Shown here piece after piece: positions 5,608-19,495 of a stretch of 64,000 nucleotides of DNA. The notes under the pieces are model-generated. The model had not been told where the DNA came from. It did not search any database and worked only from the letters and a program-made list of their open reading frames with translations. This DNA is from Escherichia phage vB_EcoM_PHB13. Location: the sequence record MK573636; one strand, given 5' to 3'. A program made the translations under genes and the position numbers. Each line of letters starts with the position of its first letter. Positions within the stretch are counted from its first letter, which is position 1.

Positions 5608-5920
5608 ACAAGTTGATAATATCGCACTTCGTGAAGCACTAAAGAAAATGTTTTCGGTCGGTACTCACTCTTTGCAGTTTACTAAGAAAGATGGTACTGT
5701 CCGTGAGATGATCGCCACGCGAGATCCGGCACTGATGCCATTTGAAACATACGAAAAATGGTTAGTTCCTAATGTTGAAAAACCGCGTAAAGAATCAGAA
5801 ACATCTTTGCCAGTATATGAAATTGCAGTTGAAGGTTTCCGTAGTTTTGGGCTTGATAGTCTGATTAATGTAGACGGGCTGACTCCAGCGCAGATCGTCG
5901 AAATTTACGGTGGCAGTTGA
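5600..5920 (+). CDS. hypothetical protein
   Basis: ORF track start at 5594 is TTG; first ATG at 5600 overlaps cd stop. Confidence 0.4.
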   Translation: MTEQVDNIALREALKKMFSVGTHSLQFTKKDGTVREMIATRDPALMPFETYEKWLVPNVEKPRKESETSLPVYEIAVEGFRSFGLDSLINVDGLTPAQIVEIYGGS

Positions 5921-5922
5921 CA

Positions 5923-6534
5923 ATGGAAACAAAAGATGATAATATCGTATTACCAGCGCCGGAAGAATGGAGACAAGCTGTAGGTTATCCGTGGTATGAA
6001 ATCTCTAATTATGGTAGATTGAGATCTATTGACCGAAGTATCGAATTTTATAGAGAAGTTTCTCCCGGTAATATTAAGCTCGTAAAACAAAAACGTGCTG
6101 GTAAAATAATAAAACCAATTTTAGACCGATATGGATATTATTATTCAACATTGTCAAAACAAAAAGACAATGGTAAAATCTCAGTTAAAGCCGAAAAGAT
6201 ACATCGACTTGTAGCAAATGCATTTCTAGGAGACGTTACCGGACTTGAGGTTAATCACATCAATGGTGTAAAAACCTGCAATTATGTGTGGAATCTAGAA
6301 ATAGTAACCTTACTAGAAAATATGAGACATTCATTTAGAACTGGACTCAATAACAATGTCGGTGAAAACCACTCACGGGCAAAACTGACAAATGCGCAAG
6401 TCGAAGAAATAATGCGGCTTAAAGGAAAAGTTAAGAAGCAAATTATAGCTGATATGTTTAATGTTTCTTATTGTTGTATAGCGCAAATACATTCCGGTCT
6501 GCGGAGAAATCCAAAGGTCGCGAAATATAAATAA
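5923..6534 (+). CDS. HNH homing endonuclease, free-standing
   Basis: N-terminal WYEISNYGRLRSIDR (NUMOD4-like) and EVNHINGVKTCNYVWNLEIVTLLENMRH (HNH_3-like); ORF track start at 5917 is TTG, ATG at 5923. Confidence 0.7.
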   Translation: METKDDNIVLPAPEEWRQAVGYPWYEISNYGRLRSIDRSIEFYREVSPGNIKLVKQKRAGKIIKPILDRYGYYYSTLSKQKDNGKISVKAEKIHRLVANAFLGDVTGLEVNHINGVKTCNYVWNLEIVTLLENMRHSFRTGLNNNVGENHSRAKLTNAQVEEIMRLKGKVKKQIIADMFNVSYCCIAQIHSGLRRNPKVAKYK

Positions 6535-6570
6535 TTTACTATTGAGATGAATTGAAGAGGTAAGAAAATT

Positions 6571-6894
6571 ATGACCGTTAAAACTCCTAAAGCACTTGGT
6601 GACTATGTGATCATTGAAGCTAAAGCGGAAAGCGCAGGGACCGAAGTAAAGAGCGATTTTGGTATTATCATCGAGCAAAAACGAACTATGGGAGAGATTC
6701 CTTTAGTCGGTAAGATTATTGATATCGGTGATAACGTTGATAAAGAATTGCTGGGCAAGACTGTATTGCTTCCTCATGGGAAACTTAATAAAGTTCCTCA
6801 TCCAGACGTTATTAACGGCGTTAAGAAGGAAGAAGAGATCGACCTGAAATGGACTGTAACGCACAAACAGAATATTGTGGTAGTTTACGGTTAA
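6571..6894 (+). CDS. 31: co-chaperonin for GroEL (GroES analogue)
   Basis: 107 aa; LGDYVIIEAKAE and NKVPHPDVI resemble T4 gp31; position between cd and gene 30 as in T4. Confidence 0.7.
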   Translation: MTVKTPKALGDYVIIEAKAESAGTEVKSDFGIIIEQKRTMGEIPLVGKIIDIGDNVDKELLGKTVLLPHGKLNKVPHPDVINGVKKEEEIDLKWTVTHKQNIVVVYG

Positions 6895-6905
6895 TGATTT
6901 TAAAC

Positions 6906-6932
6906 GGCGGGAAATAATCCCGCCTATATTTT
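6906..6932 (+). terminator. rho-independent terminator
   Basis: GGCGGGAAATAATCCCGCC hairpin followed by TATATTTT. Confidence 0.55.
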
Positions 6933-6976
6933 GGCTATATGATTTTGTAAGTTATTGATTATTAAGGAATTTTATT

Positions 6977-7141
6977 ATGAAAACTATGAATGTAAACATC
7001 CACGAAATCCATACCGAAGTATTCACCGAAGAAGACCAGTTTGGTGTATGGGTAAATCCTCATTCGATTACTATCGATATTCCTAATGACGATTATGATC
7101 CGTTCTCTCTGATTAGCGAGATTAGTTTCAATGACTTCTGA
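6977..7141 (+). CDS. small hypothetical protein, about 54 aa, not in ORF track
   Basis: AAGGAA ribosome-binding site then ATG; stop overlaps the next gene start (ATGACTTCTGA). Confidence 0.35.
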   Translation: MKTMNVNIHEIHTEVFTEEDQFGVWVNPHSITIDIPNDDYDPFSLISEISFNDF

Positions 7142-7610
7142 AATTGATATCTATGCGGGTGGACCTTATCCATCGGGTGAATTGAGTAATTTCAATAAAA
7201 GACCATTCCGTCTATTTGGTTGCGATATTAACAGCACAGAAGGATTTTTACAGGGGCTAAGATTTAAGAACCCTCAGAGACAAAGAGAAATCTTTTTGAT
7301 GCATGGTGGCAAAGCAAAAAGAACCGGAAGAACTGAAAAGATTGAGAATCACATGTTATATTTTCAGGGTCGCCCGATTCATCGAATGAGTGAGCATTAT
7401 TACAAACTGGTACATCTGGCATTTGTTACGATGGCACGGAATAACCCAGAATTTTGTAAAGCATTACTCTCGACCGGAAATAAGAAATTACGTCATAGTA
7501 TAGGTGGAACTGATCCGTTAAAGACTATATTGACTGAATCGGAATTTTGTAGTATCCTCAATGATATTCGTGAACGTTTAACAAAACGAGGTGAAAATGT
7601 CAATTCTTAA
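7131..7610 (+). CDS. NADAR (YbiA-like) domain protein
   Basis: GELSNFNKRPFRLFGCDINSTEGFLQGLRF matches the NADAR signature (SNF ... PF ... S/T-E ... Q ... KF) as I recall it. Confidence 0.5.
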   Translation: MTSEIDIYAGGPYPSGELSNFNKRPFRLFGCDINSTEGFLQGLRFKNPQRQREIFLMHGGKAKRTGRTEKIENHMLYFQGRPIHRMSEHYYKLVHLAFVTMARNNPEFCKALLSTGNKKLRHSIGGTDPLKTILTESEFCSILNDIRERLTKRGENVNS

Positions 7611-9093
7611 TATCATTAATCAGCTTGCAGCAACAGACAAAACATCGCTGAAAGAAAAGATCCTGAAAGAATCTGCAAGCAATGAAACGCTGAAAGAATG
7701 CTTTTATCTGGCATATTGCAAACAGGTTACGTTTGGCGTAAAGAAATACGATAAACCATCGCGTTATTCGTCTGTATTGTCTTTATCCGGTGCATTACAG
7801 GTCTTTAAAAATAAACTTGCCACGCGTCAAGTAACTGGTAACGCAGCATTACAGCTAGTTACCGATACTCTGACTTGCTTGTCAGAAGATGATGCTAAAG
7901 TTGCAATGATGGTCCTGAATCGTGATCTGGAATGTGGTTGTTCCGCTACCACTGCAAACAAGGTATGGAAGAAACTGATCCCCCAGCAACCGTGTCACCT
8001 TGCATCGTCATGTTCTGATAAGACTATTGCTAATATCAAGTATCCGGCGTATGCACAACTTAAAAGCGATGGCGCTCGTGGTATGGCTGATATTGACGGG
8101 GAAACATTAGCAATCTATACCCGTTCAGGTAATACCTATCAGGGACTTGATGATTTGTTTGCGGTTTTAGAGCGTCTACGAGGCCGTGGAATTGTTCTAG
8201 ATGGCGAATTGGTATATATGCCTACCCTTTCGCAAACACCAGCGCAGAACTTCGTTGAGAGCATTTATGATGGTACTCTGTCATGGATATTTGAAGAAGA
8301 GGAAATGCCATTAACGCCAGTAGCGGAAGCAGTAAAAGAATCCGTTGTTGCAGATCGTCAGACCGGAAATGGTATCCTCAACAAATCACTGAAAGGAACT
8401 ATTCCAAAAGAAGAAGCCCAATGTATTGTTTACACTGTCTGGGATGTTATCGACCGTGATGTGTATTACGGAAACGAGAAAGCAACGAAGCAATATAAAG
8501 ATCGATTCGAAGAACTAAAACAGATTGTTGAAGAACTTAACGATCCTCGTGTTCAGATAATCGAAAACACTGTAGTTAACAATATAGATGAAGCTCGCGA
8601 AGTATATCATCGCTATGTAAACATGGGCTTAGAAGGTATTATCCTTAAAAATTTACATGGTGTATTTGAAGATCGTCGCAGTAAAGATCAGGTTAAATTT
8701 AAAGAAGTGATTGACTTCGACGCGGAAATTGTTGATGTATATCCGCATAGTAAAGACCCTAATAAGGTAGGCGGTTTTACTGTCCGTAGTGCGTGCGGAC
8801 GAATGATGACTAACACCGGATCGGGATTGACTGACACCACAACCGAAAAAGGTGATGATGGTATTGAACGTGTAATTCCGTTCGATCGTCGAAATGAACT
8901 CGACCGAGAAATGTTATGGGCTGACCGTCATAACCTGATTGGAAAAGTCATTGAGATGACATGCAACGGGTATATCCGCAGCAAATCACGTAAAGAAGAT
9001 GAACCGGAGTTCTCTTTATTTCTCCCGATCATCAAACGTATTCGCTACGACAAGACCACTGCAAATACAGTAAAAGAGGTATTCGATGTGTGA
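7597..9093 (+). CDS. 30: ATP-dependent DNA ligase
   Basis: Active-site motif KYPAYAQLKSDGARG (KxDG); about 498 aa; C-terminus FSLFLPIIKRIRYDKTTANTVKEVF resembles T4 ligase; ORF track start 7591 is GTG, ATG with GAGGTG site at 7597. Confidence 0.85.
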   Translation: MSILNIINQLAATDKTSLKEKILKESASNETLKECFYLAYCKQVTFGVKKYDKPSRYSSVLSLSGALQVFKNKLATRQVTGNAALQLVTDTLTCLSEDDAKVAMMVLNRDLECGCSATTANKVWKKLIPQQPCHLASSCSDKTIANIKYPAYAQLKSDGARGMADIDGETLAIYTRSGNTYQGLDDLFAVLERLRGRGIVLDGELVYMPTLSQTPAQNFVESIYDGTLSWIFEEEEMPLTPVAEAVKESVVADRQTGNGILNKSLKGTIPKEEAQCIVYTVWDVIDRDVYYGNEKATKQYKDRFEELKQIVEELNDPRVQIIENTVVNNIDEAREVYHRYVNMGLEGIILKNLHGVFEDRRSKDQVKFKEVIDFDAEIVDVYPHSKDPNKVGGFTVRSACGRMMTNTGSGLTDTTTEKGDDGIERVIPFDRRNELDREMLWADRHNLIGKVIEMTCNGYIRSKSRKEDEPEFSLFLPIIKRIRYDKTTANTVKEVFDV

Positions 9094-9559
9094 TAATGAA
9101 GGGGCGAAAGCCCCTAAACCTAAAAAATTGTCAAAGAAAGAGCAACGCCAGATCCTGAAAATGAAATATGGTGGACGTTGTGCCTATTGTGGCGAGGAAC
9201 TAGGGGATCGCTGGCACGCAGACCACATCAAACCAGTATTGCGACGCTCAAAGGTAGTCTATGATGAAAATGGACGAATTGCCCGTAATGATGATGGATC
9301 GTGGAAGTATAAGGTTGTAGGAATGCATAAACCGGAACATGATATACTTGATAACATGAATCCGGCGTGTGTGCAATGCAATCTTTATAAAAGCTGTATG
9401 GGCTTAGAATACTGGCGTAAGTTTATACGCGAGAACTTCCAGAAGTACATTCAGCGAAATATGGGGTTGCGAGCGGCTAAACGCTTTGGCTTGCTGTCAA
9501 TTCATGACCAGCCAGTAGAATTTTATTTCGAAAAGTACGAGCGCGAAAATAAGGAGTAA
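9086..9559 (+). CDS. HNH nuclease
   Basis: CAYCGEE...HADHIKPV...NMNPACVQCNLYK: CxxC, H-x-DH, N, CxxC-N-x-x-K HNH core. Confidence 0.65.
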   Translation: MCDNEGAKAPKPKKLSKKEQRQILKMKYGGRCAYCGEELGDRWHADHIKPVLRRSKVVYDENGRIARNDDGSWKYKVVGMHKPEHDILDNMNPACVQCNLYKSCMGLEYWRKFIRENFQKYIQRNMGLRAAKRFGLLSIHDQPVEFYFEKYERENKE

Positions 9560-9566
9560 CCATTAT

Positions 9567-9911
9567 ATGTTCTTTATGTTTATCTATATCCTTTTTGTTT
9601 TCCTGGTAGGCATGTACGCAAGCCGTTTAAACCGTAGCGTTATCGGTTATGTTCTCCTATCTTTGATCATTAGCCCGTTGATCACCTTTATCATTTTGTT
9701 GGTGTTGGGTCCAACTAAATCATATGAACAGGAACAAGCAGACAAGCTAAAAGCAGAGATGGTAGAGAAACAATTTGTTCAACTGTATCTAGAAAACCCA
9801 GAGTTTGAGGAAGTTTCCACCCTTAAGCGAATGTATGACGATCTAACACGATACCCTAACTATCGAAATGTGCTGGCTATGGAAGAAGCCATTAAGCTCA
9901 TGAAAAAATAA
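9567..9911 (+). CDS. hypothetical membrane protein
   Basis: AAGGAG site; two predicted transmembrane helices in first 50 residues. Confidence 0.5.
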   Translation: MFFMFIYILFVFLVGMYASRLNRSVIGYVLLSLIISPLITFIILLVLGPTKSYEQEQADKLKAEMVEKQFVQLYLENPEFEEVSTLKRMYDDLTRYPNYRNVLAMEEAIKLMKK

Positions 9912-9924
9912 TTCAAAAAAGTTG

Positions 9925-9953
9925 TTGACAGGGGATCACGTATCCCCTATACT
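9925..9953 (+). promoter_or_regulatory. sigma70-like early promoter cassette
   Basis: AAAAAGTTGTTGACA, spacer GGGGATCACGTATCCCC (inverted repeat), TATACT; ATG at 9997. Confidence 0.6.
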
Positions 9954-9996
9954 ACACACATCAAAACGAAACACACTTTCTTAAGGAGAATCAAAA

Positions 9997-10308
9997 ATGA
10001 AATACATCGTAACGCTGCCAATGATTGACTTCGACGGAACCATGAACACCCAGAAGACCATGAGCGCGGAGAACCAACTGAAAAACGCTACCCTGATTCG
10101 TGAAGTTCGCAAGGCACTGGCAAAAGAATTTAACACCAAAATTCATTCTGTAACTGGCGAACGTTTCGCGGATCATCTTGATATCAATATCAAACCAGTG
10201 CGCAACGGTGTTATCTCTGTAACAACCAACCGCCCACATGCTGACGCTGATAATCTGACCGCTCGCGCAGAAGATGTAATTATGACCGTTATCATGGAAA
10301 AACTTTAA
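9997..10308 (+). CDS. hypothetical early protein; paralog of 13313..13600
   Basis: 103 aa; shares REVRKALAKEFNTK / LVRDAVAKEFNFK block with 13313 ORF. Confidence 0.5.
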   Translation: MKYIVTLPMIDFDGTMNTQKTMSAENQLKNATLIREVRKALAKEFNTKIHSVTGERFADHLDINIKPVRNGVISVTTNRPHADADNLTARAEDVIMTVIMEKL

Positions 10309-10317
10309 AAAAAGTTG

Positions 10318-10347
10318 TTGACAGGGGAGGTTAAACTCCCCTATAAT
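10318..10347 (+). promoter_or_regulatory. sigma70-like early promoter cassette
   Basis: TTGACA, 18-bp spacer GGGGAGGTTAAACTCCCC, TATAAT. Confidence 0.6.
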
Positions 10348-10381
10348 ACACACATACCGAAACGAACTAGGAGAATCAATT

Positions 10382-10561
10382 ATGAACTTCAACGAAATCA
10401 TCGCTAAAATCCGCTACAACGAAGAAACCATTGAACTGATGCAAAACAATATCACCAATGGATATATGATTGCAGCGTCACAAGAAATCATTGATTTGAC
10501 GGTAGCAGAAAATGCTCAGTTGAAACATCAACTTTCAACGGCTGGCGTGATTGTTATGTAA
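10382..10561 (+). CDS. small hypothetical protein, 59 aa, not in ORF track
   Basis: ATG after cassette GGAGAATCAATT; translation MNFNEIIAKIRYNEETIELMQNN... Confidence 0.45.
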   Translation: MNFNEIIAKIRYNEETIELMQNNITNGYMIAASQEIIDLTVAENAQLKHQLSTAGVIVM

Positions 10562-10578
10562 TAAAGAGAGGTGACTAA

Positions 10579-10881
10579 ATGGCAAAAGTTCAGGTAGGTG
10601 AGGTCTTCAAAATGGAAGACCATACCGTGGAAGAGATGAAAGGCGCAGTATTGAAAGTAATTAATTCAATGTGGCGTAGTGTGCTTTACATCAACTTTAT
10701 CGACGGTGATGTGTGGTGGGCTAGCGATAGCGATAAATGGGATATCAAGTTCTACAAAGGTCATACTCACTGGTTAGGATCAGAGGATGTTGTAGAAGTT
10801 CTGGCGGTTGATGTTATGCCAGGAGAGATCGAGAATCTTAGCGGAACAGCAAAAGAAGCATTGACACGCCATTTTGCGTAA
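10579..10881 (+). CDS. HxHW-family small protein, copy 1 of 6
   Basis: 100 aa; GHTHW ... VLAVDVMPGE signature shared with five downstream paralogs. Confidence 0.55.
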   Translation: MAKVQVGEVFKMEDHTVEEMKGAVLKVINSMWRSVLYINFIDGDVWWASDSDKWDIKFYKGHTHWLGSEDVVEVLAVDVMPGEIENLSGTAKEALTRHFA

Positions 10882-10937
10882 TGTAGTATAACAATAATCG
10901 GGAGGGTAATACTCTCCCACAAATTGAGGATAATATT

Positions 10938-11129
10938 ATGTGTGGTCTTAAAATGGTTGCTGAATATAAGCGAACTGGTAATGTTATGATGTATCGACGC
11001 AATGCCAACGAAGAATGGAAACCTTCAAACCGCATTAAATCCATCCAGACGTTTATGAATAACATCAAAGAAAACCTTTTCGTTAAGCGTGCTGGTGCTG
11101 GACATTGGGAAGTTTACGAAGCTGTATAA
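10938..11129 (+). CDS. hypothetical protein
   Basis: 63 aa; preceded by degenerate cassette hairpin GGGAGGGTAATACTCTCCC and GAGGA site. Confidence 0.4.
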   Translation: MCGLKMVAEYKRTGNVMMYRRNANEEWKPSNRIKSIQTFMNNIKENLFVKRAGAGHWEVYEAV

Positions 11130-11145
11130 TTTTGAGGAAAATATT

Positions 11146-11454
11146 ATGGAACAAACTAAGCTATTTGTCGCGGAACCTTTTGTAAGAGACAATAAAAATC
11201 TGGCTAAAACAATCATTTTGTATTCGGATTGGATCTTTTATATCGATGGTAATTTAGACGTATATTGTCGCACAGCTCCAACTGATTCGTTTTATATCGA
11301 AGAAAACGACACTCATAATCATTGGTATGATGGAAACGACAAAACCGAACTAGCTGTTGTCCTAGCGTCAGACGTAGAACCTGAAAACGCGGACAAAGTA
11401 GCAGACAAATTTATGAAGTACGCATATAAAGATAAAAATGAAGATGAAGAATAA
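11146..11454 (+). CDS. HxHW-family small protein, copy 2 of 6
   Basis: THNHW ... LAVVLASDVEPENADKVADKF; ORF track start 11089 trimmed to ATG 11146. Confidence 0.5.
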   Translation: MEQTKLFVAEPFVRDNKNLAKTIILYSDWIFYIDGNLDVYCRTAPTDSFYIEENDTHNHWYDGNDKTELAVVLASDVEPENADKVADKFMKYAYKDKNEDEE

Positions 11455-11461
11455 AAAGTTG

Positions 11462-11490
11462 TTGACAGGGGATCACCGATCCCCTATAAT
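11462..11490 (+). promoter_or_regulatory. sigma70-like early promoter cassette
   Basis: TTGACA, spacer GGGGATCACCGATCCCC, TATAAT. Confidence 0.6.
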
Positions 11491-11524
11491 ACACACATAC
11501 CAACGAGATATAGGAGAATCAAAA

Positions 11525-11692
11525 ATGTTCCAGACTAAAGCAGAATGCGAAGCATACATTGTAGCAAACCACGGTGAAGACTACCTGAAATTCGATATCG
11601 TAGTAGCACAGAAGATCACCGGAATGGTTGCAAAATATCTGGGTGTTAAAGAAGGTTACTATCCTAGCAACGCACCAGAAATTAACAAATAA
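11525..11692 (+). CDS. small protein, 55 aa; near-identical paralog of 14783..14950
   Basis: MFQTKAECEAYIVANHGEDYLKFDIVVAQKITGMVAKYLGVKEGYYPSNAPEINK versus MFETKAACEAYIIETHGEDYLKFDIVVAQKIVGMVAKYLGVKEGYYPSNAPEINK; ORF track start 11438 lies inside the promoter. Confidence 0.55.
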   Translation: MFQTKAECEAYIVANHGEDYLKFDIVVAQKITGMVAKYLGVKEGYYPSNAPEINK

Positions 11693-11695
11693 TAG

Positions 11696-11724
11696 TTGAC
11701 AATGATTAAAGGGAGTAGTAAGAT
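11696..11724 (+). promoter_or_regulatory. sigma70-like early promoter cassette
   Basis: TTGACA, 17-bp spacer, TAAGAT; inverted repeat GGGAGTA/TACTCCC identical to the copy at 1121. Confidence 0.55.
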
Positions 11725-11756
11725 ACTCCCATCAAGACAACAAACGGAGAATCAAA

Positions 11757-11936
11757 ATGAAAGCTATCGAAGTTCAGAAGTACATGGAAATCATCGTTGA
11801 AAGTAAAGCACATTTAGTGTTGACTACTCACGTAGGATATGATAAAAATGTGCATATGCTGGTAGACAACATCGGCTGGATGAAGTTTAATCCTAACGAG
11901 AACGTACAAGCTCAAGAAATGACCATCCCTTTCTAA
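11757..11936 (+). CDS. small hypothetical protein, 59 aa, not in ORF track
   Basis: ATG after cassette GGAGAATCAAA; translation MKAIEVQKYMEIIVESKAHLVLTTHVGYDKNVHM... Confidence 0.45.
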   Translation: MKAIEVQKYMEIIVESKAHLVLTTHVGYDKNVHMLVDNIGWMKFNPNENVQAQEMTIPF

Positions 11937-11948
11937 GAGGAATATATT

Positions 11949-12227
11949 ATGATGCGAATTACTGCAACGCTGGATAAGACACACAAAGAAAGATTTTTCG
12001 GTATGATCTTAAAAACGCCGATTTTCGATAATTACCTTTATGTTGACTATAACGGTCACATTAGCTATAAATGTAAAAATGATATTCGTGATTCCTTTGG
12101 TGATAAATCACAAGCCGATATTCACGATCATTGGTGGAACCATGACGAACCTTTACGGGTTATCGCAGTTGATGTAAAAACAACAAAAGAAGCTGATAAG
12201 GTAGTGAATGATTATGAGCAAATTTAA
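11949..12227 (+). CDS. HxHW-family small protein, copy 3 of 6
   Basis: IHDHWWNHDEPLRVIAVDVKTTKEADKVV; AAGAGGA site. Confidence 0.55.
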   Translation: MMRITATLDKTHKERFFGMILKTPIFDNYLYVDYNGHISYKCKNDIRDSFGDKSQADIHDHWWNHDEPLRVIAVDVKTTKEADKVVNDYEQI

Positions 12228-12423
12228 AGATTATAAAGCATATCAACAGATCTTGCGAGTATACGAACCAGAGTTCGCCGAAAAGATGATGGAAGATGCA
12301 TCAAAATGCCCGTCCTTTTCTGGAAACAAAAACCATTATTCTACTGGTATTGTATCATGGAAAGAAACCGCATATACTCAACAATGGATAGATGTGTTTT
12401 CAAAAACTCTTGATTGGTGTTAA
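12208..12423 (+). CDS. small protein; tandem paralog A
   Basis: MSKFKDYKAY ... MMEDA ... W; paralogous to the next gene. Confidence 0.45.
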   Translation: MIMSKFKDYKAYQQILRVYEPEFAEKMMEDASKCPSFSGNKNHYSTGIVSWKETAYTQQWIDVFSKTLDWC

Positions 12424-12425
12424 TT

Positions 12426-12641
12426 ATGAGTAAATTTAAAGATTATCGAGCATATAAAGCGATCTGCGATATATTCGATGAAAAGACCGCTCATGCAATG
12501 ATGGAAGATGCAGAACAATATGAATCATTCGTCAATTCCAAAGATTGCACAGTAAACGAGGTTGTGTGCTGGAAAGATACAAAGTATGAAGAAAAATGGA
12601 TTACTGTGTATTACGGAGAACTAGAATATGAAATTAACTAA
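12426..12641 (+). CDS. small protein; tandem paralog B
   Basis: MSKFKDYRAY ... MMEDA ... W; ORF track start 12414 is TTG, ATG at 12426. Confidence 0.45.
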   Translation: MSKFKDYRAYKAICDIFDEKTAHAMMEDAEQYESFVNSKDCTVNEVVCWKDTKYEEKWITVYYGELEYEIN

Positions 12642-12948
12642 AAAGATTTTCCCAGAATTGCGTAACTGTCTGTTACTGGTTACTGAATATAAACCTTATA
12701 CGATCTACTTGTATGTTGATGAAAATCTGAAAATCCGTTACTATGATTATACGTCTCCAGTAATGAGATCATTTGCTCACGCGATAGCAAACAATTGTAT
12801 GAATCATAATCATTGGGTAAGTGATAATGATCATGATGCGTCAGAAGTTGTAGTGATCGCATGGAATCTATCACCAGCGGAAGCAGATCAAGCACGCATT
12901 AAGCATTATGCGAAAAACAATTGGTTTGACCTTATAAGTGAGGACTAA
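12628..12948 (+). CDS. HxHW-family small protein, copy 4 of 6
   Basis: MNHNHWVSDNDHDASEVVVIAWNLSPAEADQARIKHY. Confidence 0.5.
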   Translation: MKLTKKIFPELRNCLLLVTEYKPYTIYLYVDENLKIRYYDYTSPVMRSFAHAIANNCMNHNHWVSDNDHDASEVVVIAWNLSPAEADQARIKHYAKNNWFDLISED

Positions 12949-12952
12949 TATT

Positions 12953-13231
12953 ATGTTCAAAGTAGGTGATAAGTTTATTCTTAGTCGTGATATTCTCCCT
13001 AATCTGAAAGGTTGTATCATCAATCCTAGTAAAAATTCATGGTTTTATCTGTTTATCGACGACAAACTGAATGTACGCGCCGAATATAAAGAAGGTCTTC
13101 GTACTGGTCTAGGTTTCTTTCACGATCATGATCATAGCCATTGGCTAAACGGTGGATTCGAAGCAACGGTGCTAGCGGTTGATGTGACTTACACGAACAT
13201 CATAGAAAAATATCAAAAAATTATTTTATAA
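12953..13231 (+). CDS. HxHW-family small protein, copy 5 of 6
   Basis: FHDHDHSHWLNGGFEATVLAVDVTY; GAGGA site 9 nt upstream of ATG 12953. Confidence 0.5.
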   Translation: MFKVGDKFILSRDILPNLKGCIINPSKNSWFYLFIDDKLNVRAEYKEGLRTGLGFFHDHDHSHWLNGGFEATVLAVDVTYTNIIEKYQKIIL

Positions 13232-13237
13232 AAAGTG

Positions 13238-13266
13238 TTGACATAAGATCGGGTGTATAGCATAAT
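13238..13266 (+). promoter_or_regulatory. sigma70-like early promoter cassette
   Basis: TTGACA, 17-bp spacer, CATAAT inside perfect 8-bp inverted repeat GGGTGTAT/ATACACCC. Confidence 0.55.
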
Positions 13267-13312
13267 ACACCCATCGAAACGAGATACACTTTCTAACTAG
13301 GAGAATCAAATT

Positions 13313-13600
13313 ATGGCATACATCACTATCACTCTGAAAGTTAACAAATTTGCTCACGCTGCACACGAAACCGATAATGCAATCCGTAACAACAAGTTTG
13401 CACGTCTGGTACGCGATGCAGTAGCTAAAGAGTTCAACTTCAAATTTGCAGATGGTAAAGTTATCACTAAATGGACTCATGACGGCGAAACTAAAGTAGA
13501 ACTTGCTGACAACTTCGCAAATCAGGAATATGCACACCGCCGCATCAATGAAATCATCAGCGATGAACTCTACTACGGAGTACAGGAAGGTTTGTTTTAA
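13313..13600 (+). CDS. hypothetical early protein; paralog of 9997..10308
   Basis: 95 aa; shared AKEFN block. Confidence 0.5.
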   Translation: MAYITITLKVNKFAHAAHETDNAIRNNKFARLVRDAVAKEFNFKFADGKVITKWTHDGETKVELADNFANQEYAHRRINEIISDELYYGVQEGLF

Positions 13601-13604
13601 TATA

Positions 13605-13626
13605 GGGGGCGTTAAGCCCCTTTTAA
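13605..13626 (+). terminator. rho-independent terminator
   Basis: GGGGGCGTTAAGCCCC hairpin followed by TTTT. Confidence 0.55.
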
Positions 13627-13649
13627 TCTATCTGAATGAGGATATCACT

Positions 13650-13958
13650 ATGAAAAATCTTGTAGTTGAATTTACCCGCGAGAATTTACCACAATTTCGC
13701 AATTCTCTGCTTAAACTAGAGAACAGTAATTATGATGTATATTTTTACATCACCGAAGATCTAGAGATCCTTTACGCTGATTACCCAGGTCCGATCCGTA
13801 CCTTCGAAACCGCATCAAAATATAAAAATGTGCACGGTCATGAGCACTGGTTACGAGAAAACCCAGGTCGCAAGAAAGCACGCGTTAAAGTGTTGGCGAT
13901 TGACATAACACCAGCATACGCCGACCGGATTGCACAGAATGATTATTTGTCTAAATGA
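13650..13958 (+). CDS. HxHW-family small protein, copy 6 of 6
   Basis: VHGHEHWLRENPGRKKARVKVLAIDITPAYADRIAQNDY; ORF track start 13503 trimmed to ATG 13650 with GAGGA site. Confidence 0.5.
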   Translation: MKNLVVEFTRENLPQFRNSLLKLENSNYDVYFYITEDLEILYADYPGPIRTFETASKYKNVHGHEHWLRENPGRKKARVKVLAIDITPAYADRIAQNDYLSK

Positions 13959-13965
13959 TTTCATT

Positions 13966-13991
13966 AGCCGACCTTAGTGTCGGCTTTTTTA
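13966..13991 (+). terminator. rho-independent terminator
   Basis: GCCGAC-loop-GTCGGC hairpin followed by TTTTTT. Confidence 0.6.
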
Positions 13992-14016
13992 TTGCATAAA
14001 ATTTAAAAAAAAGGCA

Positions 14017-14045
14017 TTGACACCAGATCACGCCTATAGCATAAT
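14017..14045 (+). promoter_or_regulatory. sigma70-like early promoter cassette, one hairpin arm lost
   Basis: TTGACA, 17-bp spacer, CATAAT, ATACACCC arm only; conserved leader CATCGAAACGAGATACCACTTAGGAGAATCAAA. Confidence 0.5.
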
Positions 14046-14085
14046 ACACCCATCGAAACGAGATACCACTTAGGAGAATCAAACA

Positions 14086-14355
14086 ATGGCGCTGACTAAA
14101 ACCACTACCAACTTTGCAAAACGTCACGGCTTCGACCTTGAAATCAATAGCTTTAACGATTACACCCTTCTGTGTGTATATGAAATCGAAAATGATTGCG
14201 AGTGGATGTTCAGCTATCGCGTAAACGAAGACGGATCTTTCACTTGGAACGGAAATATCTATCTTGCACAGGAAGTAAAAGAAGAACTTCCGGCGACTAT
14301 CAAAGATGAGAAACATTTACGTCAAGTTTTAAAATTTATTTCTGAAAATATCTAA
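14086..14355 (+). CDS. hypothetical early protein
   Basis: 89-aa ORF after cassette. Confidence 0.5.
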   Translation: MALTKTTTNFAKRHGFDLEINSFNDYTLLCVYEIENDCEWMFSYRVNEDGSFTWNGNIYLAQEVKEELPATIKDEKHLRQVLKFISENI

Positions 14356-14362
14356 AAAGTTG

Positions 14363-14391
14363 TTGACACCAAAGTAAGAACATAGCATAAT
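14363..14391 (+). promoter_or_regulatory. sigma70-like early promoter cassette
   Basis: AAAAAGTTGTTGACA, 17-bp spacer, CATAAT. Confidence 0.5.
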
Positions 14392-14424
14392 ACACCCATA
14401 CCGAAACGAACTGGAGAATCAAAA

Positions 14425-14706
14425 ATGAAATTCATCAAAGCAACCGAAATCCTGAAAAACAAAGAAGCATACATCGGAAACATCGTTGGTATGAACATTC
14501 GCGGCGCTGGTAGCCAGTGGACCAAACTGGTTGATGTTAAAGCTAAAGGCGATAAAATTGAGTTCACTGTAAAAATGCTTACTCATAACGCACATATGGG
14601 TATCAAGACAAAAACGATGGCAGCAGATAAAAGCATCAACTATCAGGATCTGGGTGATTGGCTGAACTGGTGCAAAATGCACAACATCGAAACTAATCAC
14701 GAATAA
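14425..14706 (+). CDS. hypothetical early protein
   Basis: 93-aa ORF after cassette. Confidence 0.5.
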   Translation: MKFIKATEILKNKEAYIGNIVGMNIRGAGSQWTKLVDVKAKGDKIEFTVKMLTHNAHMGIKTKTMAADKSINYQDLGDWLNWCKMHNIETNHE

Positions 14707-14720
14707 TTTTAAAAAAGTTG

Positions 14721-14749
14721 TTGACGGGGATCGGGAGATCCCCTATAAT
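14721..14749 (+). promoter_or_regulatory. sigma70-like early promoter cassette
   Basis: TTGACG, spacer GGGGATCGGGAGATCCCC, TATAAT. Confidence 0.55.
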
Positions 14750-14782
14750 ACACACATACCGAAACGAAATAGGAGAATCAAA

Positions 14783-14950
14783 ATGTTCGAGACTAAAGCA
14801 GCATGTGAAGCATATATCATTGAAACCCACGGCGAAGATTATCTGAAATTTGACATTGTAGTAGCACAGAAGATTGTAGGGATGGTTGCGAAATACCTCG
14901 GAGTTAAAGAAGGTTACTATCCAAGCAACGCACCGGAAATTAACAAATAA
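14783..14950 (+). CDS. small protein, 55 aa; near-identical paralog of 11525..11692; not in ORF track
   Basis: See 11525 feature; ATG after AGGAGAATCAAA. Confidence 0.5.
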   Translation: MFETKAACEAYIIETHGEDYLKFDIVVAQKIVGMVAKYLGVKEGYYPSNAPEINK

Positions 14951-14965
14951 TTTTTATAAAAAGTG

Positions 14966-14994
14966 TTGACAGGGGAGACACCCTCCCCTATAAT
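14966..14994 (+). promoter_or_regulatory. sigma70-like early promoter cassette
   Basis: TTGACA, spacer GGGGAGACACCCTCCCC, TATAAT. Confidence 0.6.
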
Positions 14995-15034
14995 ACAACC
15001 ATCAAGACGAGATACCACTTAGGAGAATCAAACA

Positions 15035-15286
15035 ATGGCTAACATCGAAACCGCAAAGAAAATCGCTAAAGACCTGAACGTTAAAGGCTTCCGTAAACTG
15101 AAATTACAGCGTGTACGCTACACCATCGGCAAACAGTGCTCTTTCATGAGCGAAGAAGTTGCTAACAGCCTCATTGATAACCTGATTGCGGCTGGCTGGG
15201 AAGTTGCGGATCTGAAAACTTGCCGCGAACTGGCTAACAAAGGTCTTTTAGATTCTGTTACTATAAAACCAATGGGGGCAGCGTGA
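15035..15286 (+). CDS. hypothetical protein, first gene of a five-gene operon
   Basis: 83 aa; first 16 nt (ATGGCTAACATCGAAA) identical to the start of the 17164 gene. Confidence 0.5.
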   Translation: MANIETAKKIAKDLNVKGFRKLKLQRVRYTIGKQCSFMSEEVANSLIDNLIAAGWEVADLKTCRELANKGLLDSVTIKPMGAA

Positions 15287-15528
15287 AAAGAAAATTAATT
15301 AAACGAAATAAGGAATTTTTGAATAACTGCATTAAGGTTGCTAATGGTTGGCCTTTGTTCCTCTTCCTTTATGATTGGTATTCTAAACAATCGGTAGAGG
15401 AAACACGACACTATAAGAAGATCAGAAAAGAATCATATACAAAACAAGGCCGCATTAACGGACTTTACTTAATGTGGCACGGCAAAGAACCTTCTAAAAT
15501 CTGTGTTGGATTAAAGGGGCGTATATGA
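15283..15528 (+). CDS. basic hypothetical protein
   Basis: 81 aa; apparent GTG start overlapping upstream stop; no internal ATG until residue 64, so start is uncertain. Confidence 0.35.
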   Translation: MKRKLIKRNKEFLNNCIKVANGWPLFLFLYDWYSKQSVEETRHYKKIRKESYTKQGRINGLYLMWHGKEPSKICVGLKGRI

Positions 15529-16241
15529 AACAAAAATTAATATTCTGCAACTTTGACGGATCGGGGATAATGGGGCTAGAATGGGCTAAAGCAGGTCATA
15601 AGGTGATCTGCTTTAATGCAGATGATGCCGACCACGGCACATACAAAAAGTATAATACCCGATTTGAACATCCAAACATTACATATGTAAACACATGGAT
15701 TGATTTGGATTGGCTGGAAAGAGCAATGGACCTTGAATGGGGAAAACCAGATATTATCTTTGCATTCCCACCGTGCACCAATTTAGCTGTTAGTGGCGCT
15801 GCACACTTTGAACGAAAGAAACGAGAACAAGGACCATTAATTCAAGTTCATGATGTAAGGGCAGCTAAAATAACCGCTTATTTGGGCGAATGGTTAGAAG
15901 TTCCCTACATGATAGAGAATCCTGTAAGCGTTATCTCTAGCATGTGGCGTAAGCCTGATTACATGTTCCACCCGTGGGAATATGGCGGTTATTTGCCGGA
16001 ATATGATATACATCCTACGTTTCCTGAGTATATTGCCTCCCGTGATATGTACCCGAAAAAGACTTGCTTATGGACGGGACAAGGTTTTATAATGCCAGAA
16101 AAGAAACCTATACCGATTAATAAAGGGTACAGTAAACAGCATTCTAAGCTAGGCGGGAAAGGAACCAGAACAAAGACTATCAGGTCACTTACCCCGCGAG
16201 GATTCGCAAAGGCAGTATTTGAAGCCAATAAGGATCTATGA
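15525..16241 (+). CDS. cytosine-C5 methyltransferase-like protein (mini Dcm fold)
   Basis: Motif I-like LIFCNFDGSG, motif IV-like FAFPPCTNLAVSGAA (Pro-Cys), motif VI-like MIENPVS, C-terminal RSLTPRGFAKAV; only 238 aa with no room for a target-recognition domain. Confidence 0.45.
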   Translation: MKQKLIFCNFDGSGIMGLEWAKAGHKVICFNADDADHGTYKKYNTRFEHPNITYVNTWIDLDWLERAMDLEWGKPDIIFAFPPCTNLAVSGAAHFERKKREQGPLIQVHDVRAAKITAYLGEWLEVPYMIENPVSVISSMWRKPDYMFHPWEYGGYLPEYDIHPTFPEYIASRDMYPKKTCLWTGQGFIMPEKKPIPINKGYSKQHSKLGGKGTRTKTIRSLTPRGFAKAVFEANKDL

Positions 16242-16570
16242 TGGGATTGTTTAAGTATTCGCTAACGTCAAATTACGATAAACAAGGTCATTGCATCAGT
16301 TGCCCTGATTGTCGTAGCCATAACATCGAAAGCAAGATCACCGATCATATTGATGGACTTTGGTCGCCAGCAAGCGAGATAGAATACTATTGCGCTGATT
16401 GTGGAATTGTAGTAGCATATTGGGCATACGGATCATATGATCCTTACTTCCAGATGGGAGAGCGTTCAATCCCTGCTCTTATCTGGAGAATTAAGAACAA
16501 TATCCGCCATTCATGGGATGAGTTCTTAAAAGATATTGATTTACGTGATGATCCATTCAGGAGACTATAA
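16238..16570 (+). CDS. zinc-ribbon protein
   Basis: CISCPDC ... CADCG (two CxxC pairs); start overlaps upstream stop. Confidence 0.4.
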   Translation: MMGLFKYSLTSNYDKQGHCISCPDCRSHNIESKITDHIDGLWSPASEIEYYCADCGIVVAYWAYGSYDPYFQMGERSIPALIWRIKNNIRHSWDEFLKDIDLRDDPFRRL

Positions 16571-16571
16571 C

Positions 16572-17090
16572 ATGAACCGTTTGACGCCTAAACGCCGTTA
16601 CTATACCAATACTAAAAACTTTGTCATCTCTGTTTATGAGGCGTGGTTAGAAGATGGCTATATCAACATGAACCCAGATTACCAGCGTCCTTTGGTATGG
16701 GACACCGAAAACAAACGTATGTTTATCGAAAACCTGATTAATGATTTTCCGGTTGGTGCTATCGCAATGGCTAAGATTGATGATGGCTCTCGCTATGAGA
16801 TCGAAATCGTGGACGGTAAACAGCGTTTAAACGCAATATTCTCCTTTATGAAAGATGAGTTTAGCATTGCTGGTAATGATGATTCTATGTTGTATTACAG
16901 TGATTTTACGCCAGCAGAAAAGCGACGTTTTCGCAATCTCGGACTACCCGCGATCATGATGGAAGAGAGCACACGAGAAGATCGATTAGAATATTTCTAC
17001 AAAACAAACTTTTTCGGTGTGCCTCAATCAGAAGATCATCGCCAGCATGTGATTGCATTATTGCAAGATGAGCAATTAAAAAATAACTAA
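16572..17090 (+). CDS. DUF262 / ParB-like nuclease-superfamily domain protein
   Basis: NPDYQRPLVWD ... EIVDGKQRLNAI (YQR-W and DGxQR motifs); ORF track start 16536 trimmed to ATG 16572 with AGGAG site. Confidence 0.6.
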   Translation: MNRLTPKRRYYTNTKNFVISVYEAWLEDGYINMNPDYQRPLVWDTENKRMFIENLINDFPVGAIAMAKIDDGSRYEIEIVDGKQRLNAIFSFMKDEFSIAGNDDSMLYYSDFTPAEKRRFRNLGLPAIMMEESTREDRLEYFYKTNFFGVPQSEDHRQHVIALLQDEQLKNN

Positions 17091-17097
17091 AAAGTTG

Positions 17098-17127
17098 TTG
17101 ACAGGGGGATCGGTGATCCCCTATAAT
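17098..17127 (+). promoter_or_regulatory. sigma70-like early promoter cassette
   Basis: TTGACA, 18-bp spacer GGGGGATCGGTGATCCCC, TATAAT. Confidence 0.6.
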
Positions 17128-17163
17128 GCAAACATACCGAAACGAACTACTAAGGAGTATCAA

Positions 17164-17376
17164 ATGGCTAACATCGAAATCATCATTACCGACGTAACTT
17201 ATGACCGCATTAACGAAATCGGTACTGCTTTGCTAGAAGATGGAACAACTCGCACCATCAACTACGCAGAATACGTTGAAATGCGCGGTTGTATTAAACG
17301 AGTAGGAAAATATATCCTGATTGAAAAAGACTATTCAGGATACACATTAGAGCAATTGCTCGATGGTGCATTATAA
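17164..17376 (+). CDS. hypothetical protein
   Basis: 70 aa; ORF track start 17095 lies in the promoter; ATG at 17164 after AAGGAG. Confidence 0.5.
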   Translation: MANIEIIITDVTYDRINEIGTALLEDGTTRTINYAEYVEMRGCIKRVGKYILIEKDYSGYTLEQLLDGAL

Positions 17377-17382
17377 TAAATT

Positions 17383-17403
17383 GGGGCGTTAAGCCCCCTT
17401 TTC
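17383..17403 (+). terminator. rho-independent terminator
   Basis: GGGGCGTTAAGCCCC hairpin followed by CTTTTC. Confidence 0.5.
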
Positions 17404-17410
17404 ATAAATA
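17403..17410 (+). promoter_or_regulatory. possible T4-type late promoter variant for alt
   Basis: CATAAATA (7 of 8 match to TATAAATA) about 33 nt upstream of the alt ATG. Confidence 0.3.
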
Positions 17411-17443
17411 TAGGTTTATAGGTTATCAACTAGAGGATATAAA

Positions 17444-19495
17444 ATGTTTAACTTAGAAATCGACGATCTAATGATTGAATCTTTCGAGAAATGGCTGTTG
17501 ACGGAAGAGGAAGAAAACTTTGGCAGTATTGCTCCGGTACAGTGCTTAAAGCCTAAGCAGAATCCTAAACAGCTTTTTGCAGTACAGACACGCGATAAAG
17601 ATGTGATTGTCCGTCTTTGTAACTTCACCAACAAAACACCTAAAATCATTCGTATGGGTGACAAGACCGCACATGTTGTACTGTGCGAAATGAACAAAAG
17701 CGGTCGTATTGTACAGCTTAAAAATGGTCTAGGCGATAACCCGATTGCAGTTATGGCAAGTGCTTTTGATGTGGTTATGGAAACAGCCCGTAAAGCGCAA
17801 TTAGACGCTGTTATGTTCCGTTTTAACGTATCCCGCATGAAAGGTAAGACCGAACTGGTTAAGCGCGTTATAGAGCGTTTGGTGCGTCGTACACCGAAGT
17901 TTGAAGTATTCCAGCAGGAAGTAATGACCAGCAAAAAGATCGCTTTAGTTGTTGTCAAGCGTCGAGGTATGGCGATTGATAAGATTAAAGGGATTAAACT
18001 TGATGAATCCTTGTTCACTAAAGTAGAAAGTGATTTAGGTGATCGCTGGGTATCTAAAGCTACTGGCGAATCTCTGACTAAAGATGAAGCATATGCGGCT
18101 AGTCTTGTGTCAGAAGAAGAACGAAACGCGGAAGCAGAACAACGCGTAGCGGCTAAATCTCGTTTGACTAAAGAAGAAATGCTGAAAACTCAAGCGACCT
18201 ATAACAGCGACTATGTGAATCATCCAGAAAAAATTAATCTTAAACCGGAAGAAGATATCACCGAAGCAGAACCTAAGAAACAGTTTAATACTCTGATTGA
18301 CCGTCAAGCCTTAGAACGTTCAACCGCCCGTTCTCTGAATGACTGGACAAGTGATATTATCACTCGCTATGGTTTCATGCGTACTATTTTTGAAAGCGAA
18401 GCCGATGCAAAATACGCAGTAAGCGAACTGGTAAAAGTTCAGGACCAATATGATCCGTTGTCTGCGGAAGTTATCGCAGCATCAATCAAACGCTTAAAAG
18501 AAATCATGAGCGAGGAAGTATTCGAAAACAAGATCACTGCGTTGGCAATGGATCGAGTAGACCAGTCTATGCCAGCAGATGTAAAAGCTGAAATGCTGCG
18601 TAGTCATATCACACAGATTAAAACCGATGCCCTTCGTAATGTTGCCTCCGGTATGTTTGAAGCAATTGCAAGTAACATGGGTGAAATGATGGCAGATATT
18701 GATCTTGACCTACCAGGCGCGGAAGGTTTTGTGTTGAGCGAATATGCGGATGCAGCATACATCAATATGAACAACTTCCTAACCGATCGTAAGCTGGATG
18801 AGTTCGAAGGGATCGCTGACCCAGAAGAATTGGTCAAGATGTGCGACGCACTGGATAATGCCTTCGCTAACTATGGCGTTAAACTTGATCCGGGTACTAT
18901 TCTGTATCGTGGTATGGACTTCCGGTCTCAAATGTGGGAAACTGCACGTAAGCAAAAAGCGTTTTACTTTAAAAACTATGTGAGCACTTCCCTTGCACCT
19001 AACATTTTTGGCGGCTGGAATGCAAACGTGGCTAGTGCCGTTGCTGGTGTTGATTCTATGGCTGGCTCTCGCGGTGAAGGTGGCGCGAATGTTGCTTTCT
19101 CCATTGCTGGCGCGGAAAACATCCCTGTATTGCCAGTAGGTAACAAAGCATTTGCTTACAAAGAATGCGAGATTTTACTTCCTCGCGGTGTTGTGTTATC
19201 CTTTGATACGGTAACTCGTGCTACGGCATCGACGGATTCACAAGAAACATATTACATTGAGGCACATATTATGAACAAAAGTGAACTGGCAGCATTACAA
19301 GAATCTGGCGAAATGATCGCGGATGGTGATGCATTCATCCGTGAAGGTGTTGTTAAACCTGCTTCTGACCTGTCTTTCTCCAGATTCATTACAGAAGCTA
19401 AAACCGAACGTAAGAAAGCAGATAAGGCAACTCTACGTCAGCTTATCGCTGATCTGGTGTCTGTAGACGCAATGCCAGATAAATTTAAAATGTAA
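17444..19495 (+). CDS. alt: ADP-ribosyltransferase Alt
   Basis: 683 aa (T4 Alt is about 682); C-terminal ART triad LYRGM / YVSTSL / ECEILLPRG; position between gene 30 region and gene 54 as in T4. Confidence 0.75.
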   Translation: MFNLEIDDLMIESFEKWLLTEEEENFGSIAPVQCLKPKQNPKQLFAVQTRDKDVIVRLCNFTNKTPKIIRMGDKTAHVVLCEMNKSGRIVQLKNGLGDNPIAVMASAFDVVMETARKAQLDAVMFRFNVSRMKGKTELVKRVIERLVRRTPKFEVFQQEVMTSKKIALVVVKRRGMAIDKIKGIKLDESLFTKVESDLGDRWVSKATGESLTKDEAYAASLVSEEERNAEAEQRVAAKSRLTKEEMLKTQATYNSDYVNHPEKINLKPEEDITEAEPKKQFNTLIDRQALERSTARSLNDWTSDIITRYGFMRTIFESEADAKYAVSELVKVQDQYDPLSAEVIAASIKRLKEIMSEEVFENKITALAMDRVDQSMPADVKAEMLRSHITQIKTDALRNVASGMFEAIASNMGEMMADIDLDLPGAEGFVLSEYADAAYINMNNFLTDRKLDEFEGIADPEELVKMCDALDNAFANYGVKLDPGTILYRGMDFRSQMWETARKQKAFYFKNYVSTSLAPNIFGGWNANVASAVAGVDSMAGSRGEGGANVAFSIAGAENIPVLPVGNKAFAYKECEILLPRGVVLSFDTVTRATASTDSQETYYIEAHIMNKSELAALQESGEMIADGDAFIREGVVKPASDLSFSRFITEAKTERKKADKATLRQLIADLVSVDAMPDKFKM

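Follow-up and report, generated by a model that had tools for sequence, protein, structure and literature searches.

Probable old paralogues among the shuffled early promoter cassettes of an RB49-like coliphage

In the T4-type coliphages RB49 and phi1, the region between the DNA ligase and alt genes is the locus at which Arbiol et al. (2010; PMC2839356) described promoter-early stem-loop (PeSL) cassettes and gene mini-circles, a system taken up again by Comeau et al. (2014; PMC4122927). Each PeSL combines a near-perfect sigma-70 promoter and a G/C stem-loop, preceded by an AT-rich tract and followed by a leader with a Shine-Dalgarno (SD) sequence (PMC2839356). Promoter and terminator activity have been shown in vivo for the orthologous PeSL cassettes of RB49 and phi1, and excised mini-circles have been shown for this locus, one bearing the four open reading frames (ORFs) 191-194, ORF191 among them, and others bearing ORFan210 (PMC2839356). 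This work concerns the corresponding region of Escherichia phage vB_EcoM_PHB13, of which a stretch of 64,000 nucleotides (nt) from sequence record MK573636 was analysed (hereafter, the window). An original prediction had proposed that four pairs of small early genes, named by their start positions, arose there through repeated duplication at cassette boundaries, as part of an ongoing modular shuffling, and that they were dosage-sensitive or fast-evolving. All eight start coordinates it named (8/8) are those of real ORFs. The best overall explanation is in all probability that three of these pairs (11525/14783, 12214/12426 and, more distantly, 9997/13313) are old paralogues within a region shuffled by PeSLs, and that the fourth (15035/17164), sharing the initial codons for MANIE, was not duplicated.

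The window belongs to Krischvirus, the RB49-like T4-type coliphages. A megablast search with positions 11000-18000 found 58 phage records at 90-97% identity, all from this genus, with the figure over 7 kb also put at 94-97%, and the gene order is syntenic with the annotation of RB49, phi1 and ECD7. The paired genes lie within the variable region that runs from the ligase side to the alt side (Table 1), which appears to be packed with small early ORFan genes served by about ten near-consensus sigma-70 PeSL cassettes. Scoring the consensus TTGACA, about 17 nt, TATAAT identified nine predicted + strand promoters with at least 11/12 matches in 8.1 kb (9500-17600), four of them with 12/12; cassettes were also catalogued by regular expression. 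Stem-loops formed by a G-run and a C-run lie between, or overlap, the -35 and -10 elements, with stems of 7-8 bp and predicted stabilities of -10.5 to -16.6 kcal/mol in six PeSLs; relative to shuffled sequences, five of the six have z from -3.1 to -4.1, and the PeSL before 9997 has -1.7. On the 5' side of the cassettes, the upstream stop codon is followed by a stretch rich in A and T, of which AAAAAGTTG and TTTTTATAAAAAGTG are examples, that runs up to TTGAC; at the 3' end, GGAGAATCAA precedes the ATG of the ORFan. Judged by their promoters, stem-loops, AT tracts and SD sequences, their hyperplastic location and the chimeric junctions described below, the cassettes of the window match the published description of PeSLs.

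The first pair encodes proteins of 55 amino acids (aa), copy A at 11525 and copy B at 14783. They are identical at 49/55 aa (89%) and at 142/168 nt (84.5%), so the pair is real, and the protein identity of about 85% originally given for it is instead that of the DNA. The proteins align over their full length (E=3e-36; z = 52 for the local alignment against 1000 shuffles), and each matches the phrog_8009 hidden Markov model (HMM) at residues 1-55 of 55, with 1.2e-38 for A and 6.8e-38 for B. At the DNA level, the two are alike from within the upstream PeSL as far as the stop codon, after which each is followed by a different PeSL. Both copies are thus cassettes of a single gene, set 3.26 kb apart. 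They are separated by 19 synonymous and 7 non-synonymous differences, corresponding to a synonymous divergence (dS) of 1.05, a non-synonymous divergence (dN) of 0.055 and a ratio of the two (omega) of 0.05 (Nei-Gojobori). Between the window and RB49 or phi1, the dS of orthologues is 0.06 for copy A, 0.06 for copy B and 0.106 for ligase; hence the depth of the split between A and B exceeds that of the sampled genus by a factor of roughly ten or more. These values point to an old duplication, the copies of which appear to be under strong purifying selection.

Alternatively, the two 55-aa genes could be xenologues, one of them having been acquired from a diverged phage, whether by way of PeSLs or by some other transfer. 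This is unlikely, yet it would account for a dS of about 1, more than ten times the genus-wide divergence of orthologues, and the gene does travel between unrelated phages: homologues outside the genus are 66-68% identical in Swiduovirus-type and Salmonella siphoviruses, 44% identical in Sasha-like phages, and 78% identical on an unrelated metagenomic contig, where no PeSL accompanies the gene. It would also suit the absence of any 55-aa copy from L013, a diverged Krischvirus-like metagenomic phage (ENA ERZ27235406 k119_4708, 5494-9827; ligase dS>2) that has the same ligase-alt region and PeSL type in a permuted gene order, and that lacks ORF210 as well. However, A and B are 89% identical to one another at the protein level, whereas none of the homologues found elsewhere exceeds 78%; the siphovirus homologue is no nearer to one copy than to the other (62.5% and 61.9% nt identity); and, throughout the genus, both keep fixed positions and their orthologues have diverged equally. 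A capture, if there was one, must accordingly be older than the sampled radiation, and would be hard to tell from an old duplication. As a separate observation, the PeSLs of L013 are more conserved than the coding sequences that surround them.

The locus was compared in 11 related Krischvirus genomes, and gene copies were counted over the 58 records. This comparison of copy number, which the original prediction had proposed, found both 55-aa genes in 51/58 records and one in the other seven, with A alone in 5 and B alone in 2; none lacks both. JK32, Brandy and UPWr_E1 lack cassette B, and also ORF210. In JK32 and Brandy, the PeSL at the first junction is chimeric, joining the 5' half of the PeSL preceding B to the leader of that preceding 15035, and UPWr_E1 has the same gene spacing as these two, the genomes in which this junction was aligned. 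The loss of ORF210 left an equivalent scar in JK32 and Brandy, in which the PeSL before 9997 is chimeric with the next PeSL. MIZ4 lacks the genes from B through 16572, following a crossover in the AT-rich/-35 part, such that the 5' half of the PeSL before B survives. Finally, in Cognac and FL04 the whole interval between A and B is missing, amounting to ten genes and about 3.3 kb, with one B-type gene retained behind the A-side neighbour. In Cognac the crossover is in the leader, between the -10 element and ATG, whereas in FL04 it is in the -35/stem-loop; as these points differ, the two deletions were independent events. Collapse of repeats during assembly was considered as a source of the single-copy genomes and ruled out, as the copies differ at 26 sites, and there are four deletion types with different, precise junctions.

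The same 26 diagnostic sites separate A-type from B-type genes in 12/12 genomes examined, against which background short exchanges between the copies can be identified. Copy A of Brandy has six consecutive B-type synonymous sites, and copy B of Cognac has three A-type sites. The genes are bounded by PeSLs, natural insertions and deletions carry chimeric PeSL or leader junctions, and these sequence comparisons indicate that the pair of A and B cassettes mediates both deletion and conversion. The ongoing modular shuffling that had been anticipated is thus borne out by the cassette-wise gain and loss of genes, and by the chimeric PeSL junctions, among the 11 related genomes: shuffling at the cassettes is real, and still polymorphic.

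The retention of at least one 55-aa gene in 58/58 genomes, together with an omega of 0.05, argues that the protein is useful. Its predicted structure is, with low confidence, a two-helix hairpin (AlphaFold; predicted local distance difference test score, pLDDT, of 62). There was no sequence match to it above threshold in the PDB, and a Pfam search of the eight paired proteins returned nothing above threshold. Matches in a large protein database numbered five for the 55-aa family, two for the ORF198 type (13313) and one for the ORF210 type (9997), too few for deep profiles. An exhaustive HMMER search with the 55-aa protein produced six matches; the three long ones were rejected as spurious, being unrelated repeat proteins (PB1, PPC and FG-GAP).

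The second pair, T1 and T2, had been identified as tandem paralogues at 12208 and 12426, and this holds when T1 is taken from 12214, with 12208 as an alternative start. The two proteins are collinear over their full length, with 28/68-69 aa identical (41%; BLASTP E=4e-19, z=26), and both match the phrog_8471 HMM across its length (1.5e-36 and 3.9e-35). They lie inside a six-gene operon (11757-13231), with neither a promoter nor a PeSL between them. This is therefore an ordinary tandem duplication, not an event at a cassette boundary, and the proposal that duplication occurred at such boundaries does not fit it; the members of the dispersed pairs do lie directly behind PeSLs. The synonymous sites are saturated and dN/dS is about 0.39. 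Two copies of the family are present in 53 of the 58 records, one in 3 and none in 2. RB49 alleles are 90% identical to those of the window for T1 and 62.5% for T2 at the protein level, and T1 is at 80-90% identity in 24/56 records. In L013 there is one member, whose identity of 38% to T1 and 28% to T2 is below the 41% between T1 and T2. We infer that the pair is a local duplication inside the operon that arose within the Krischvirus lineage, probably by local unequal exchange.

With both of these pairs aligned and their substitution rates estimated, as the original prediction had suggested, the reading that follows from it, in which genes that are dosage-sensitive or engaged in an arms race were duplicated recently and repeatedly and then diverged fast, becomes very unlikely. 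Each 55-aa copy does have its own strong predicted promoter, which, with at least one copy in every record, is compatible with selection on expression level; and the dN/dS of the tandem pair is higher, with a divergent T2 allele in RB49. Nevertheless, the omega of the 55-aa pair is very low, and throughout the genus most paired genes have orthologous proteins with 97-100% identity; the tandem pair and ORF210 of RB49 depart from this, and only the tandem pair has divergent alleles. Seven natural isolates live with a single 55-aa copy, of either type. Furthermore, synonymous sites are near saturation in every pair, so none of the duplications is recent. Old duplication followed by conservation is consequently the better description of the 55-aa genes, and the idea that they are fast-evolving does not survive; dosage sensitivity likewise gains no support.

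The third pair, 9997 and 13313, had been linked by a shared AKEFN block. The direct similarity is indeed significant, and is confined to 27 aa around this motif, at residues 20-50. Its Smith-Waterman score of 57 was matched by 5/20000 shuffles (Gumbel p of about 2e-4), the two are reciprocal best matches among the 158 ORFs of the window, and hhalign gave a probability of 82% with E=1e-5. BLASTP produced no alignment between them, and their C-terminal halves have no similarity (z=-0.8). Both match the full-length phrog_7474 HMM (2.9e-43 and 4.8e-43), partly by construction, as this PHROG probably holds both Krischvirus types. Wider homology is supported through an intermediate. In tblastn searches of phage genomes, both proteins pointed to one gene, carried by about 30 further T-even phages that are Gaprivervirus-like. 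Its 101-aa product in the Gaprivervirus Escherichia phage UPEC01 (L016:2501-2806) bridges the pair, with matches of 6e-13 to 9997 (residues 1-95) and of 4e-15 to 13313 (residues 9-93). This protein is a mosaic, with an N-terminal half resembling 9997 (z=12.8) and a C-terminal half resembling 13313 (z=13.7). The pair therefore reads as one of real but distant paralogues from a single family, with apparent intragenic mosaicism around a conserved AVAKEF block, about which the halves of the ORF210/ORF198 family would have recombined in other T-even phages. Their synonymous sites are saturated, and the AlphaFold model of 13313 is poor (pLDDT 38). The ORF210 type is present in 43/58 records and absent from 15, and the ORF198 type present in 56/58 and absent from 2. 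As a further observation, ORF210 of RB49 (L002:5454-5783) contains an in-frame 18-nt tandem duplication (ERFADH ERFADH), found neither in the window nor in the other relatives, and it is because of this insertion that it is only 93.6% identical.

The fourth pair differs from these. The genes at 15035 and 17164 share their first 16 nt, ATGGCTAACATCGAAA (15035-15050 and 17164-17179), and their leaders differ. Beyond MANIE, no similarity was found between the proteins by shuffling (z=0.3, with 355/1000 shuffles as good) or by BLASTP, which gave no alignment, and they belong to different PHROGs. The likeness that had been noticed is real, being the sole real-gene outlier among 12403 pairs of ORF starts, and so non-random; but, as it is limited to the first codons, the outcome that the original prediction itself had named as its refutation, these genes are not duplicates of one another. 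It remains to ask whether the other similarities are also no more than leaders and first codons imposed by the cassettes, in the absence of protein homology. As a general account this is extremely implausible. It describes 15035/17164, and the M-[KA]-x-I starts of PeSL-led genes do exaggerate how alike 9997 and 13313 look at their N-termini; yet 11525/14783 and 12214/12426 align across their whole lengths at the E values given above, and the block shared by 9997 and 13313 is well inside the proteins and is joined by an intermediate sequence. This explanation is thereby refuted for three pairs.

The shared 16-nt start may instead be the relic of a crossover at the junction between cassette and coding sequence. 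The diverged orthologue of 15035 in L013 (at 7093) begins MKVDA. A broader and distinctly doubtful conjecture is that PeSL recombination reaches past the start codon, making chimeric small proteins through swaps of N-terminal codons or half-genes, with old paralogues acting as portable homology arms that shape which blocks are lost. It fits the 16-nt start of 15035 and 17164, given the different start in L013, and the mosaic in UPEC01.

As to how the 55-aa duplicate originated, the most likely process would be recombination between non-allelic PeSLs. One possible route is that an excised PeSL mini-circle was reintegrated into a genome that had kept the donor copy; another is unequal exchange between replicating genomes. 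The duplication would have occurred long before the sampled genus, with purifying selection then keeping both copies near-unchanged. Copies A and B, with their PeSLs, now serve as direct repeats, permitting occasional short conversion and, in some isolates, the deletion of either one cassette or the whole interval between them. Several points weigh against this account of old paralogues. Firstly, the dS near 1 rests on about 34 synonymous sites, and is imprecise. Secondly, the PeSLs of A and B, at 83% identity, are not uniquely close, the PeSL before B being 86% identical to that before 10382; therefore the promoter part is no proof that the cassette moved as one piece. Thirdly, at the two diagnostic sites nearest the 3' end (141 and 153), the swaps may have come about through repeated synonymous change and not through conversion. 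Fourthly, unequal crossing-over followed by loss, or the capture of a diverged allele, would give the same end state as a mini-circle. Fifthly, the full-length homology of 9997 and 13313 depends on an intermediate that may itself be chimeric, the other two half combinations of the UPEC01 homologue reaching only z of about 2.5. The notion that the A and B PeSLs are each other's unique nearest relatives was itself discarded, having failed a nearest-neighbour test.

Table 1. Features of the ligase-alt region of the window (positions in nt).
Feature	Position	Strand	Description
DNA ligase gp30	7591-9093		left border of region
HNH gene	9086-9559		beside ligase
Orthologue of RB49 ORF211	9567-9911		present in window, RB49, Cognac and JSE
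PeSL before 9997	9912..9996	+	TTGACA-17-TATACT, GGGGATC...TCCCC stem-loop, AT-rich tract, leader, SD
9997	9997..10308	+	103-aa ORFan, RB49 ORF210 orthologue (ORFan210 has its own published mini-circles, PMC2839356), phrog_7474; single-gene PeSL cassette
PeSL before copy A	11455..11524	+	sigma-70 consensus matched at 12/12; -35 and -10 enclose a G/C stem of 8 bp
55-aa copy A	11525..11692	+	RB49 ORF205 orthologue, phrog_8009; single-gene PeSL cassette
T1, 69 aa	12214..12423	+	RB49 ORF202 orthologue, phrog_8471; alternative start 12208
T2, 71 aa	12426..12641	+	RB49 ORF201 orthologue, phrog_8471; begins 2 nt past T1 stop
PeSL before 13313	13232..13312	+	stem-loop overlaps -10
13313	13313..13600	+	95-aa ORFan, RB49 ORF198 orthologue, phrog_7474
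RB49 ORF194 equivalent	14086		
RB49 ORF193 equivalent	14425		
PeSL before copy B	14707..14782	+	83% identical to copy A PeSL
55-aa copy B	14783..14950	+	RB49 ORF191 orthologue, phrog_8009; single-gene PeSL cassette
PeSL before 15035 operon	14951..15034	+	
15035	15035..15286	+	83-aa ORFan, RB49 ORF190 orthologue, phrog_14908
DNA methyltransferase gene	15525-16241		same operon as 16572-17090
Small gene	16238-16570		between methyltransferase and GmrSD_N genes
Gene for protein with GmrSD_N (DUF262) domain	16572-17090		Pfam 4.4e-20
PeSL before 17164	17091..17163	+	
17164	17164..17376	+	70-aa ORFan, RB49 ORF185 orthologue, phrog_10679
alt	17444-19495		right border of region

Other features of the region complete this picture. 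Among PeSL-led genes, ATC (Ile) is the fourth codon in 6/13 (9997, 11757, 13313, 14425, 15035 and 17164), whose products start with MKYI, MKAI, MAYI, MKFI and, twice, MANI; this pattern was picked post hoc and is weakly significant, and could represent a preference in translation starts or shared 5' coding sequence. The HxHW gene family that had also been predicted was confirmed by all-against-all BLASTP as six paralogues in 10579-13958, at 25-35% identity (E 2e-3 to 6e-15). Four of these six genes are within the block deleted from Cognac and FL04, and L013 has two members. The slot upstream of copy B, between 14706 and 14783, holds different cargo in different relatives: it is empty in the window and phi1, contains ORF192 (157-158 aa, signal-peptide-like) in RB49 and G2494, and in JSE encodes an unrelated basic protein of 103 aa, whose N-terminus resembles a signal peptide (L012:10100-10411). 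The ORF211-type gene is absent from ECD7, phi1, MIZ4, FL04, JK32 and Brandy, and a shorter ORF is annotated at its position in G2494; Arbiol et al. reported RB49 ORF211 to be a homologue of a Vibrio superintegron ORF (PMC2839356). In MIZ4, the block encoding the methyltransferase and the GmrSD_N protein is gone, within the deletion extending from copy B through 16572.

The phenomenon observed here was already known for this exact locus in 2010; the finding is thus largely ordinary, and the details of paralogy are minor additions to it. The paralogy is, moreover, implicit in PHROG clustering, and unsurprising. This work nevertheless confirms the published PeSL model of how genes are gained and lost in this phage group, with the number of genomes raised from two to 58, and corrects the idea of fast-evolving genes. 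Some cassette genes are found to be old paralogues under apparently strong purifying selection, of which the 55-aa gene, with at least one copy always retained, may reasonably be suspected of serving a useful purpose early in infection. Paralogous cassettes also constitute the repeats that delete a 3.3-kb accessory block of ten genes in natural isolates.

The PeSL cassettes and mini-circles of RB49 and phi1 (PMC2839356, PMC4122927) are the same system, sharing the genus, the hyperplastic region, orthologous genes, cassette anatomy and chimeric junctions at insertions and deletions. The papers describing them treat the insertion, deletion and replacement of ORFans, to which the window adds paralogy. 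Searches of their full text (PMC2839356, PMC4122927) for duplication, paralogues and gene families found no relevant passage, and literature searches on paralogues or duplication in RB49-type phages returned nothing relevant. Hence the additions beyond these papers appear to be the old duplicate cassette genes, their conversion, and the 3.3-kb deletion in Cognac and FL04.

This arrangement is similar to that of integron cassettes, an analogy drawn by Arbiol et al. themselves (PMC2839356), in that small, mostly promoter-proximal ORFs can leave the genome as circles and enter it again at a conserved site. However, the PeSL system has neither an integrase nor an attC site, and each cassette has its own promoter; rather, recombination is presumed to be general homologous recombination acting on about 70-100 bp of PeSL homology. 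In the lambdoid morons (Hendrix et al. 2000, as represented in PMC2839356), single genes with their own promoter and terminator are likewise added to a phage genome, and the siphovirus homologue of the 55-aa gene is moron-like, lying on the strand opposite its upstream neighbours. Unlike morons, the flanking regulatory sequence in Krischvirus is a conserved substrate for recombination. Finally, the nonessential regions of T4 also undergo deletion at short repeats (Mosig et al. 1998; Singer et al. 1982; as represented in PMC2839356), similarly a homology-driven loss of blocks of small nonessential early genes, whereas the repeats in Krischvirus consist of a 168-bp paralogous gene with its cassette, and the deletions between them occur in natural isolates, not in laboratory mutants.

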